Source: a virus. Taken from it: DNA of 11,339 nucleotides. The DNA is taken from UHGV virus genome UHGV-0227772. The stretch is one strand, 5' to 3'. Shown here piece by piece: positions 2,188-3,259 of this stretch (positions are counted from its first letter, which is position 1; every line of letters begins with the position of its first letter). The position numbers were made by a program, and so were the translations under genes. Below the pieces are notes generated by a model that made no database searches, was not told the DNA's origin, and saw nothing but the letters and a program-made list of their open reading frames with translations.

Positions 2188-2283
2188 ACCTTCCTCGGTT
2201 TAGTGTTTTTTTTGAGTTTAGTGTTTAATAAACCATTAAGTCAAGTATTTGCTTGTTTAGTGATTACTAAAGATAATTACCGC
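2188..2283. promoter_or_regulatory. Divergent promoter/operator region between the Cro-like gene and the repressor gene
   Basis: 96-bp AT-rich intergenic region. GTTTAG occurs three times (2198-2203, 2216-2221, 2255-2260) and the palindrome GTTTAaTAAAC lies at 2223-2233. The near-palindrome TTAGTGATTACTAA (2257-2270) overlaps the third GTTTAG copy. Confidence 0.5.
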
Positions 2284-2655
2284 ATGCAAAAAAAAGAAAT
2301 TCGCCGTTTACGTCTCAAGGAGTGGTTTAAAGATAAAACTCTGCCACCCAAAGAGAAGAGCTACCTATCTCAACTAATGAGCGGGAGAGCCTCGTTTGGA
2401 GAAAAGGCTGCCAGAAGAATAGAGCAAACATACGGGATGCCGGAAGGGTATTTGGATGCGGAATACGCAGAACAACCGGAGGTTTCTCCGCCACATGCAG
2501 GGTTAACGTCTAATCAACTGGAATTATTGCAGATTTTTTCAGCCTTCCCTGAGGATGAGCAACGCCAGATAATCAGCGAGTTAAAACAGAAAAAAGAATC
2601 AATGGAAGATCTCATAGCGAGATGGATTGCGGCGCAAAAATGCCGCCGCGCCTAA
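2284..2655 (+). CDS. paaR2: XRE-family HTH repressor, DicA/PaaR2-like (CI-equivalent)
   Basis: ATG at 2284 (MQKKEIRRLRLKEWF...), 123 aa; the track's longer ORF starts at a GTG at 2203 inside the operator region. HTH segment KSYLSQLMSGRASFGEKAARRIEQTYGMPEGYLD and C-terminal LELLQIFSAFPEDEQ resemble DicA as I recall it. First gene of a regulator-antitoxin-toxin triplet. Confidence 0.6.
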   Translation: MQKKEIRRLRLKEWFKDKTLPPKEKSYLSQLMSGRASFGEKAARRIEQTYGMPEGYLDAEYAEQPEVSPPHAGLTSNQLELLQIFSAFPEDEQRQIISELKQKKESMEDLIARWIAAQKCRRA

Positions 2656-2675
2656 GTTATAAAACCGGAGGAAAC

Positions 2676-2867
2676 ATGAATAGAGCCCTTTCACCAATGG
2701 TTTCTGAGTTTGAAACCATTGAACAAGAAAACAGTTACAACGAATGGCTGCGTGCGAAAGTAGCAACGAGCCTTGCAGATCCGCGCCCAGCAATTCCCCA
2801 TGACGAAGTTGAGCGCAGAATGGCAGAACGCTTTGCTAAAATGCGCAAGGAACGGAGCAAGCAGTAA
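2676..2867 (+). CDS. paaA2: Small antitoxin, PaaA2-like (ParE-associated)
   Basis: 63-aa ORF MNRALSPMVSEFETIEQENSYNEWLRAKVATSLADPRPAIPHDEVERRMAERFAKMRKERSKQ with GGAGG at 2666-2670. Stop TAA at 2865-2867 is followed one base later by the toxin ATG. Confidence 0.6.
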   Translation: MNRALSPMVSEFETIEQENSYNEWLRAKVATSLADPRPAIPHDEVERRMAERFAKMRKERSKQ

Positions 2868-2868
2868 A

Positions 2869-3147
2869 ATGTTACCCGTGTTATGGCTTGAAAGCGCAGA
2901 TACCGACCTAGATGATATAACTAGTTATATTGCTCGTTTCGACATAGATGCGGCAGAACGCTTATGGCAGCGATTAAGGGGTTGTGTGCTGCCGTTATCC
3001 GAACATCCGTATTTATACCCACCAAGCGACAGAGTACCTGGCTTGCGTGAGATTGTGGCCCACCCTAACTATATAATTCTATACCGCGTAACAACATCAA
3101 GCGTTGAAGTAGTAAACGTGATCCACGCAAGACGCCAGTTTCCCTAA
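2869..3147 (+). CDS. parE2: RelE/ParE-superfamily toxin, ParE2-like
   Basis: 92-aa ORF MLPVLWLESADTDLDDITSYIARFDIDAAERLWQRLRGCVLPLSEHPYLYPPSDRVPGLREIVAHPNYIILYRVTTSSVEVVNVIHARRQFP. Pattern W..E.A..DL..I..YIA..D..AA..L, PGLRE, Y.ILYRV, V.V..V.HARR is typical of ParE-type toxins. Tightly coupled to the upstream antitoxin. Confidence 0.7.
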   Translation: MLPVLWLESADTDLDDITSYIARFDIDAAERLWQRLRGCVLPLSEHPYLYPPSDRVPGLREIVAHPNYIILYRVTTSSVEVVNVIHARRQFP

Positions 3148-3218
3148 CTTTCACTACCAATAGAAACACAACAACCGCAACGACTTTATCAAAAGCGTTG
3201 TGTTTGTTGCGCCTCTTG

Positions 3219-3259
3219 GTTTAGTTTTTACTTGACTTGAGTTTAACATTTATTAAACT
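3219..3259 (+). promoter_or_regulatory. Putative leftward-operon promoter with operator-like half-sites
   Basis: TTGACT (3232-3237), 16-nt spacer, TAAACT (3254-3259). Inverted repeat AGTTTAA(6 nt)TTAAACT at 3240-3259 and a GTTTAG at 3219-3224 share the GTTTA half-site with the 2188-2283 region. Confidence 0.3.

Follow-up and report, generated by a model that had tools for sequence, protein, structure and literature searches.

The window, that is, the whole stretch of 11,339 nucleotides of the virus genome UHGV-0227772 that was analysed, carries ydaT and ydaS on the minus strand, followed by paaR2, paaA2, parE2, a PL-type promoter, ydfA, a DicF-like RNA and dicB. Judging from its sequence, it holds the immunity region of a lambdoid prophage of the CP-933P/Sp12 type. 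The same switch was characterised experimentally in a prophage of E. coli O157:H7, which is 97-98% identical (Jurenas et al. 2021, mBio, PMC8630535).

The paaR2 gene (2284-2655, plus strand) encodes a CI-like repressor of 123 aa, assigned by its identity with EDL933 PaaR2, by PDB matches and by PHROG 5736. The product is 98% identical over 123 aa to the CP-933P protein of EDL933, with both differences in the linker and an identical N-terminal DNA-binding part, and its residues 1-71 match the PDB entries 7NKV, 8C3K and 8C3L for the N-terminal domain of PaaR2 (titled "Phage repressor protein CI", E = 1e-39). A Pfam search of the 123 aa gave no domain at E <= 0.01, so its identification also draws on the toxin-antitoxin neighbours and the literature. 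The same search, at the same threshold, showed no S24/LexA-like C-terminal autocleavage domain, and PaaR2 is therefore not SOS-cleavable; the literature states that the peptidase motif is missing and that mitomycin C gives no response (PMC8630535). The divergent ydaS gene (1885-2187, minus strand), transcribed from PR, encodes a Cro-like regulator of 100 aa that matches Pfam YdaS_toxin, HTH_3 and P22_Cro, is 95% identical to EDL933 YdaS and falls in PHROG 35 ("transcriptional repressor"). The product of ydaT matches Pfam YdaT_toxin, and the ydaS-ydaT pair corresponds to Cro and CII analogues. A YdaT box, TTGATT-N6-AATCAA, was found at the ydaS/ydaT junction (1878-1895).

Downstream of paaR2, and co-transcribed with it, are the genes for the antitoxin PaaA2 (2676-2867) and the toxin ParE2 (2869-3147), both on the plus strand and recognised by Pfam PaaA2 and ParE_toxin. 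Their counterparts in relatives are annotated RelB and RelE/ParE, and in the relatives L001 and L002 the annotated PaaA2 and ParE2 proteins are identical. The cargo of the PL operon (3438-4163, plus strand) comprises ydfA (3438-3590, Pfam DUF1391), the DicF-like sRNA (3743-3791) and dicB (3975-4163, Pfam DicB). Rfam found nothing at its gathering thresholds, and DicF was seen only below them (29 bits, E = 4e-4, gathering score 48). A search of the conserved 175-nt PL leader (3266-3440) for structured RNA resembling put or nut gave a fold z of +1.58, no better than shuffles.

Concerning the short motif GTTTA(G/A), four copies lie in the 96-bp spacer between ydaS and paaR2 (2198, 2216, 2223 and 2255, all on the plus strand) and three upstream of ydfA (3219 and 3241 on the plus strand, 3253 on the minus strand). 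The preliminary description of this DNA had reported six copies clustering in these two regions; the clustering holds and the number becomes seven, with a further, eighth copy at 2325 within paaR2. The sequences quoted at that stage, GTTTAaTAAAC (2223-2233), AGTTTAA-N6-TTAAACT (3240-3259) and the promoter TTGACT-N16-TAAACT (3232-3259), are all present. The second of them had been placed next to the promoter; its actual position is within the spacer and the -10 hexamer of that promoter.

Enrichment over the window had been suggested as a check, and it was not found: in the 11.3 kb there are 13 GTTTAR copies against 10.9 +/- 3.4 expected, and 13 or more copies appear in 62 of 200 shuffles. The whole-window count is uninformative as a test at that scale. 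When each region was compared with dinucleotide-preserving shuffles of itself, the spacer showed four copies against 0.58 expected (P = 0.0014) and the PL core (3200-3270) three against 0.39 (P = 0.005); the G+C content of both is about 30%. Of the longer word GTTTAGT the window holds four copies, every one of them in the spacer or the PL region. A repeat search independently connected the two regions through a 17-nt family at 2216, 2255, 3219 and 3241, as well as a 25-nt repeat (2212-2236 and 3237-3261) with 80% identity between its copies.

The hexamer is in fact only the outer end of a larger unit, the 18-bp pseudo-palindrome GTTTA-N8-TAAAC with half-site GTTTAGTAA. With at most one mismatch, this pattern is found in the window at four places, namely 2216, 2255, 3241 and one stray site. 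A half-site matrix trained on non-E. coli loci only, whose consensus is GTTTAGTAA, ranks the same three 18-mers highest (26.0, 21.1 and 18.4 bits, respectively), the next best reaching 10.9. The training sites were chosen by the pattern GTTTA-N8-TAAAC, so the invariance of the operator ends is partly circular; the independent evidence is that of position and context. Moreover, two of the seven GTTTA(G/A) copies coincide with -10 elements (AGTTTA/TAAACT; PR 2215-2220 and PL 3254-3259), and part of the hexamer conservation may thus reflect promoter function.

The spacer measures 96 bp, against 97 bp in EDL933, and differs from it at three positions; within the T-run that separates the 2198 and 2216 sites, one base pair is deleted and a C is replaced by T. 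The promoter scan placed the PR-type promoter of ydaS-ydaT at 2215-2244 on the minus strand, with the -35 TTGACT (2244-2239), an 18-nt spacer and the -10 TAAACT (2220-2215), hexamers identical to those of PL. In EDL933, PR933P was confirmed by 5' RACE (PMC8630535). The main PR operator, GTTTAGTGTTTAATAAAC (2216-2233, the IR3-equivalent), is an exact GTTTA-N8-TAAAC site that takes up the PR spacer and reaches into the -10. Its sequence does not vary among four E. coli strains and is the exact reverse complement of its counterpart in the loci of Yersinia, Erwinia, Martelella alba and Acerihabitans. Beside it, the IR4-equivalent (2198-2215, GTTTAGTGT and TTTTTTTGA) has one conserved half-site (12.3 bits) and covers the PR transcript start. 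This site is included in the published EMSA fragment (window 2188-2283), lies outside the PR and PRM reporter fragments (2211-2284) and is one base nearer to IR3 than in EDL933. Inspection by eye of the non-E. coli homologues revealed no obvious GTTTAG-type site adjoining the PR operator.

On the other side of the spacer, direct reading gives a PRM-type promoter for paaR2 (2249-2277, plus strand) with the -35 TTGCTT, a 17-nt spacer and the -10 GATAAT; the block TCAAGNATTTGCTTGTTTA in this region is conserved across genera. The -10 ends 6 nt before the ATG at 2284, and no Shine-Dalgarno sequence precedes this codon. This geometry fits a start predicted at the A of the ATG, so that the paaR2 mRNA would be leaderless, as was found in EDL933 by 5' RACE and N-terminal sequencing (MQKKE; PMC8630535). 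The PRM operator, GTTTAGTGATTACTAAAG (2255-2272, the IR1-equivalent), is the second-best 18-mer of the window and sits in the PRM spacer, at -29 from the ATG, a place it shares with most of the 27 homologous loci described below. Between the two strong sites, a weak IR2-equivalent (2235-2252, ATTAAGTCA and AGTATTTGC) overlaps the -35 elements of PR and PRM and has one half-site only, which by direct reading matches GTTTAGTAA at 6 of 9 positions. Its placement at about 2235 was inferred from the four equally spaced 18-bp repeats published for EDL933, of which IR2 and IR4 are half-conserved (PMC8630535); this assignment and that of the distal OL site were made in the present analysis.

About the PL region, the promoter scan identified TTGACT, a 16-nt spacer and TAAACT at 3232-3259 (plus strand), which is predicted to drive ydfA, the DicF-like RNA, dicB, an exonuclease gene and onward. 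The published PL933P-gfp fragment, placed by means of its primers, corresponds to 3148-3265 and contains this promoter. The proximal operator, GTTTAACATTTATTAAAC (3241-3258), is the third-best 18-mer and another exact GTTTA-N8-TAAAC site; it occupies the PL spacer and extends into the -10, and among E. coli strains its ends are invariant while its centre is CA or TG. In the distal operator (3219-3236, GTTTAGTTT and TTACTTGAC), the left half-site is conserved (10.3 bits; 10.6 for the full site) and the right half is the PL -35 itself. The stretch GGTTTAGTTTTT of this site is invariant in four E. coli strains, with varying flanks, and a similar arrangement, with (C)TTGAC or (C)TTTAC directly after GTTTA-N8, is seen again upstream of PL in Xenorhabdus, Photorhabdus, Yersinia and Massilia.

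To extend the comparison beyond E. coli, 27 homologous loci with 44-76% protein identity were used, from Xenorhabdus, Photorhabdus, Yersinia, Erwinia, Raoultella, Enterobacter, Massilia, Mycoavidus and others. In most of them, one site lies about 67 nt and another about 29 nt before the leaderless start codon, and those whose repressor mRNA has a leader have them further upstream. Most also carry another exact site next to a TTGAC -35, 445-2293 nt past the repressor start codon. All PR and PL sites conform to GTTTA-N8-TAAAC, and the PRM sites deviate from it at one position; the site positions and the distance of 18 bp spanned by the ends are kept across genera, whereas the centres vary. Among 74 non-redundant viral contigs, the PR site is present in 52 and the downstream site in 43 (median distance 985 nt), against a background of 0.061 hits per kb. 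A YdaS-like partner, 51-63% identical, accompanies the repressor in nearly every homologous locus.

The experiments on EDL933 concern the same elements. The spacer there holds 18-bp inverted repeats with the half-site GTTTAGTAA, and both proteins bind it in EMSA; the DNase I footprint extends over about 78 bp with PaaR2 and over about 65 bp with YdaS (PMC8630535). In gfp reporters, each of the two proteins represses the PR, PRM and PL fragments, and basal PaaR2 expression already represses PR and PL (PMC8630535). PL933P has -35 and -10 hexamers as in PR and three OL operators, and its gfp fusion is repressed about 100-fold by PaaR2 or YdaS; the evidence at PL consists of reporter data (PMC8630535). 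The authors describe two overlapping types of repeat, the 18-bp inverted repeats and "pseudosymmetrical operators", leave their assignment open, and cite the octamerisation of PaaR2 in solution (PMC8630535). The binding and repression data, obtained with EDL933 DNA and proteins, are carried to the allele in the window by sequence identity.

Taken together, it is very probable that the motifs mark the outer ends of 18-bp operators in the immunity switch of a CP-933P-type lambdoid prophage, a switch already published in 2021, so the original observation is correct and not new. The strong operator at 2216-2233 would occupy the spacer and -10 of PR, the promoter of ydaS-ydaT, and that at 2255-2272 the spacer of PRM, from which the leaderless paaR2-paaA2-parE2 mRNA would arise; the half-palindromes at 2198 and about 2235 are weaker. 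Some 1 kb further on, past parE2, the strong site 3241-3258 and the half-site 3219-3236 would cover the -10 and -35 of PL. PaaR2, as the CI analogue, and YdaS, as the Cro analogue, would bind the same sites and block RNA polymerase, and their competition would make the locus bistable. Direct binding of PaaR2 or YdaS at PL may be inferred from the sites found there; an octameric PaaR2 may also loop OL to OR, and each half-site would presumably be contacted by one or the other protein. The earlier suggestion of oR-like and oL-like operators for a CI-type repressor, on either side of its gene, is supported by the identities of PaaR2 and YdaS and by the EDL933 experiments. It had assigned them to one repressor, and this has to be amended: the sites are operators of the immunity switch, but they serve both PaaR2 and YdaS.

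Another origin for the cluster would be promoter DNA itself, the hexamer being a chance word of AT-rich sequence or the complement of the -10 TAAACT. The unremarkable count over the window, the two copies that form the PR and PL -10 hexamers and the low G+C of both regions are what such a by-product would give. Nevertheless, shuffling these same AT-rich regions predicts far fewer copies than the four and three observed, five copies are not -10 elements, the spacing and positions are conserved across genera around variable centres, and there are published footprints on the EDL933 spacer (PMC8630535), which makes such an origin highly improbable. A further possibility would be a separation of the two palindromes, with the 11-bp GTTTAaTAAAC as the spacer operator and the differently spaced PL palindrome read by another factor or in another binding mode. 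Both palindromes do exist, and a further copy of the 10-mer TTTAATAAAC lies within ydaS, at 2164-2173. However, GTTTAaTAAAC is only positions 8-18 of the 2216 18-mer and was rejected as the operator unit, since neither the PRM sites nor the PL sites of the Xenorhabdus/Photorhabdus type conserve it; the PL palindrome is the 3241 18-mer extended by one base on each side, and GTTTA-N8-TAAAC covers the PR, PL and, with one mismatch, PRM sites. Two separate codes are thus hardly to be expected.

The operators might belong chiefly to YdaS and not to PaaR2, or each protein might read a different one of the two published, overlapping repeat types. YdaS does footprint the spacer and repress all three promoters, and the near-universal pairing of repressor and YdaS-like protein means that co-conservation cannot separate the two. 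On the other hand, PaaR2 protects about 78 bp over all sites, and its basal expression is enough for repression of PR and PL. In addition, both spacer operators persist in two Erwinia loci (L021 and L023) that encode a PaaR2 N-terminal domain with 76% identity but have no YdaS-like divergent gene. An arrangement of operators shared by PaaR2 and YdaS is hence retained, and one centred on YdaS, or divided between the proteins by repeat type, appears improbable.

Going one step further, these observations could be read jointly as a single rigid code, GTTTA-N8-TAAAC, whose last five bases plus T form the -10 of PR and PL, and which would hold family-wide. This proposal is tentative, with the chances standing somewhat against it. 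Its breadth, as the sequence comparison suggests, could reach PaaR2-type repressors of 44-76% protein identity in many genera of Enterobacterales, some Burkholderiales and at least 74 viral contigs. If the code were true, prophages of different genera would be homoimmune, and the CP-933P lineage of E. coli would represent a derived form in which the PR operator is inverted and the half-site at 2198 has been added. The single-code reading would extend the published model and leave the identity of the feature unchanged, and the conservation of the 18 bp across the family offers a ready hypothesis for the exact recognition sequence of PaaR2, which the 2021 study left open. For annotation, the value lies in the precise placement of PR, PRM, PL and their operators in the window; dicB, the DicF-like RNA and the recombination genes would here be under PaaR2/YdaS control, and the ParE2 toxin-antitoxin pair is carried on the repressor transcript.

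Among the known switches, RacR/YdaS/YdaT of the Rac prophage shares with the window a YdaS-YdaT pair divergent from the repressor gene and a near-identical YdaT box, and cross-binding has been reported (PMC11879457). RacR is, however, a different repressor, and Rac YdaT binds the spacer between the repressor gene and ydaS, whereas CP-933P YdaT does not. The Qin prophage of K-12, with DicA/DicC, resembles the window in the position of the repressor gene, a positional equivalence already stated in PMC8630535, in its cargo of ydfA, DicF-like RNA and dicB, and in the use of an immunity-type repressor to hold dicB off. It differs in that the DicF-like RNA of the window is divergent (29 bits, below the gathering score of 48) and the repressor is PaaR2 and not DicA, with 123 aa and no Pfam HTH_3 match, a distinction drawn from the Pfam search and the 98% identity to PaaR2; the operators should therefore differ in specificity from those of Qin.

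The OR/OL system of lambda offers the general plan: divergent PR and PRM with overlapping operators, a second cluster at PL beyond the repressor gene, a repressor mRNA without a leader, sites common to a CI-like and a Cro-like protein, and a repressor reported as octameric. OL and OR of lambda are roughly 2.3-2.4 kb apart, and the distance in the window is shorter, about 1 kb (2216 to 3241). In contrast to the lambda repressor, PaaR2 is unrelated in sequence, has 123 aa and is without an S24 autocleavage domain. The operators are 18-bp GTTTA-N8-TAAAC units, with four spacer repeats instead of three, the toxin-antitoxin pair takes the place of rexAB, and the CII analogue is the POU-type YdaT.

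The closest relative is CP-933P (Sp12) of E. coli O157:H7, which has PR933P, PRM933P, PL933P and PRE933P. Although the PL operators of the window carry a few substitutions in the centre and flanks, and ydfA (DUF1391) stands downstream of PL where EDL933 is without it, both share the gene order, a near-identical spacer, the promoter hexamers, GTTTAGTAA-type repeats at both regions and the YdaT box, whose CP-933P counterpart is the YdaT operator described in PMC9986795.

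Pfam searches placed YdaT (1463-1888) and the Cro-like helix-turn-helix protein YdaS (1885-2187) on the minus strand, and the PaaA2 antitoxin (2676-2867), the ParE toxin (2869-3147), DUF1391 (ydfA, 3438-3590), DicB (3975-4163), DUF1482 (4154-4348) and an exonuclease (4441-6930) on the plus strand. The 123-aa protein encoded by 2284-2655 gave no Pfam match. It was identified as the repressor PaaR2 because of its N-terminus (MQKKE) and its place ahead of paaA2-parE2, and its residues 1-71 match PDB entries 7NKV, 8C3K and 8C3L ("Phage repressor protein CI"). The DNA at 2150-3300 is 97.2% identical to prophage CP-933P of E. 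coli O157:H7 EDL933 and 99.3% identical to strain 05-3629. PaaR2 is 98% identical to the EDL933 protein, the linker containing both of the differing residues, and YdaS is 95% identical to its EDL933 counterpart. The isolated phage Evi has a 99% identical repressor and the same arrangement. The window carries the proteins and the sites of the EDL933 switch.

The preliminary description had listed six GTTTA(G/A) copies clustered in two regions, suggesting oR- and oL-like operators of one CI-type repressor. The clustering was confirmed, although seven copies were counted: 2198, 2216, 2223 and 2255 (plus strand) in the 96-bp spacer between ydaS and paaR2, and 3219 (+), 3241 (+) and 3253 (-) upstream of ydfA. 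An eighth copy (2325) is within the paaR2 coding sequence. The GTTTAaTAAAC palindrome (2223-2233), AGTTTAA-N6-TTAAACT (3240-3259) and TTGACT-N16-TAAACT (3232-3259) were all located. The whole-window count showed no excess of GTTTA(G/A), with 13 observed versus 10.9 +/- 3.4 expected. When each AT-rich region was shuffled separately, preserving dinucleotide content, the spacer had four copies versus 0.58 expected (P = 0.0014) and 3200-3270 had three versus 0.39 (P = 0.005). GTTTAGT occurs four times in the 11.3-kb window, never outside the spacer and the PL region. Repeat searches joined both regions through a 17-nt family (2216, 2255, 3219 and 3241) and a 25-nt repeat, 80% identical, between 2212-2236 and 3237-3261; an inverted 10-mer holds the -35 hexamers of two promoters.

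Exactly this module was studied in EDL933 by Jurenas et al. 2021 (mBio, PMC8630535), who mapped PR933P and PRM933P through 5' RACE and found that paaR2 is leaderless. In EMSA and DNase I footprints of the 97-bp spacer, PaaR2 protected ~78 bp and YdaS ~65 bp; the protected DNA has four 18-bp inverted repeats at equal intervals (consensus half-site GTTTAGTAA), of which two are good palindromes, over PRM and PR, and the other two are conserved in one half only (PMC8630535). PL933P, past parE2, has -35/-10 hexamers as in PR and three similar operators, and PaaR2 or YdaS repress gfp fusions of PR, PRM and PL, the last ~100-fold (PMC8630535). Low levels of EDL933 PaaR2 activate PRM, and the locus is bistable (PMC8630535). 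Through their primers, the published fragments were placed on the window at 2188-2283 (EMSA), 2211-2284 (PR/PRM reporter, repressed without the 2198 half-site) and 3148-3265 (PL reporter). The follow-up paper (PMC9986795) defined the YdaT operator TTGATT-N6-AATCAA. An exact copy is found at 1878-1895, at the ydaS/ydaT junction, the position where PRE933P was described in CP-933P.

Compared with EDL933, the spacer has lost 1 bp and carries T for C in the T-run near 2212; the only other difference is G/A at 2281. Both T-run changes (2208-2214) are also seen relative to ATCC 25922; the deletion, common to 05-3629, shifts the 2198-to-2216 repeat spacing from 19 to 18 bp. In the PL of four E. coli strains, the GGTTTAGTTTTT block, TTGACT and the GTTTA...TAAAC ends are invariant, whereas the bases between and around them differ.

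The comparison was extended to 27 loci with PaaR2 homologues (44-76% identity) from Xenorhabdus, Photorhabdus, Yersinia, Erwinia, Raoultella, Enterobacter, Morganella, Arsenophonus, Massilia, Mycoavidus and others. The DNA upstream of the homologues is strongly conserved: GAGTTTATTAAACACTAAAC, ~7 nt, GTCAAGTATTTGCTTGTTTAG, nnnTTACTAATCAAAAT, 5-6 nt and ATG. Searching for GTTTA-N8-TAAAC (up to one mismatch) gave matches in nearly every locus, almost exclusively of three kinds: a PR operator at -66 to -68 from the leaderless start codon, a PRM operator at -29, and an exact downstream site 445-2293 nt past the start codon. The latter always has a TTGAC- or TTTAC-type -35 ahead, spaced as in PR; the base after it is T, and this T together with the site's final five bases makes up the -10 TAAACT. 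Applied to the window, the search returned 2216, 2255, 3241 and one stray match (9432).

In Xenorhabdus/Photorhabdus loci (L004, L005, L007-L011, L016 and L017) the repressor gene is not leaderless, a 50-300 nt insert being found between the conserved PRM/operator block and the start codon; in L016 it consists of GGTAAATAGTGTTATGTGTAC-like units in tandem. In seven others (L018, L019, L021, L023, L025, L027 and L028) homology to PaaR2 is limited to the first 58-90 residues (56-76% identity); the C-terminal part then differs and is longer, at 200 aa or more. Since these loci keep the operators, the PaaR2 DNA-binding domain seems to have been joined to various oligomerisation or sensor domains.

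A half-site matrix trained on non-E. coli sites alone gave the consensus GTTTAGTAA, in agreement with the published one. Its top three 18-mers in the window are 2216 (26.0 bits), 2255 (21.1) and 3241 (18.4), followed by 9386 (10.9) and the distal PL site at 3219 (10.6). Regarding viral contigs, the 19-nt PRM core was found in at least 120 from IMG/VR. Among 74 non-redundant ones, contig ends accounting for some missing sites, 52 have the PR site and 43 the exact downstream site (median distance 985 nt; background 0.061 per kb). Separately, TTTAATAAAC has an exact second copy at 2164-2173 (ydaS codons 5-8), 60 bp from the PR-operator copy. It scores 13.7 bits, tying for the window's top half-site, but the matching second half is missing. 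This copy may act as an additional half-operator or may reflect the coding sequence by chance.

The unit is the 18-mer and not the hexamer. The 11-bp palindrome was also considered as the unit and discarded: it corresponds to positions 8-18 of the PR operator only, PRM operators do not have it, and it is missing from Xenorhabdus/Photorhabdus-type PL operators. The E. coli CP-933P-lineage PR operator (2216-2233) is exactly the reverse complement of the 18-mer found at this position in loci of Yersinia, Erwinia, Martelella alba and Acerihabitans (L018, L021, L025, L027 and others), its orientation being flipped versus all other loci examined (GTTTAGTGTTTAATAAAC versus GTTTATTAAACACTAAAC, same strand). 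This inversion is compatible with symmetric recognition over 18 bp. By eye, nothing that obviously corresponds to the 2198 half-site adjoins the PR operator in other genera. Concerning which protein reads these sites, the comparison favours PaaR2 as the primary reader, since in two Erwinia loci the operators accompany the PaaR2 N-terminal domain while the divergent gene is not YdaS-like. Elsewhere the comparison cannot separate PaaR2 from YdaS because a YdaS-like partner is always present.

The operon downstream of PL shows other features. The ~175-nt leader ahead of ydfA (3266-3440) is G+C-rich and conserved in four E. coli strains, and its folding is thermodynamically ordinary (z = +1.58). 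A DicF-like sRNA (3743-3791) scores 29 bits against Rfam DicF (E = 4e-4; gathering score 48), retaining the terminator hairpin with a divergent 5' targeting region; its target range may differ from that of K-12 DicF. It is followed by a weak STnc100-like match (3803-3952).

At PR and PL the strong operators occupy the promoter spacer and the -10, and at PRM the spacer; any protein bound there must therefore keep RNA polymerase out. PaaR2 would bind PL directly and, as an octamer, may loop the DNA between clusters 1,025 bp apart (2216 to 3241). The reading as oR- and oL-like operators is supported, and the sites correspond to a feature described before, the OR/OL operators of the CP-933P-type PaaR2/YdaS switch; the only points that are possibly new, all incremental, are the family-wide 18-bp code, the -10 embedded in the operator and the inverted E. 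coli PR operator.
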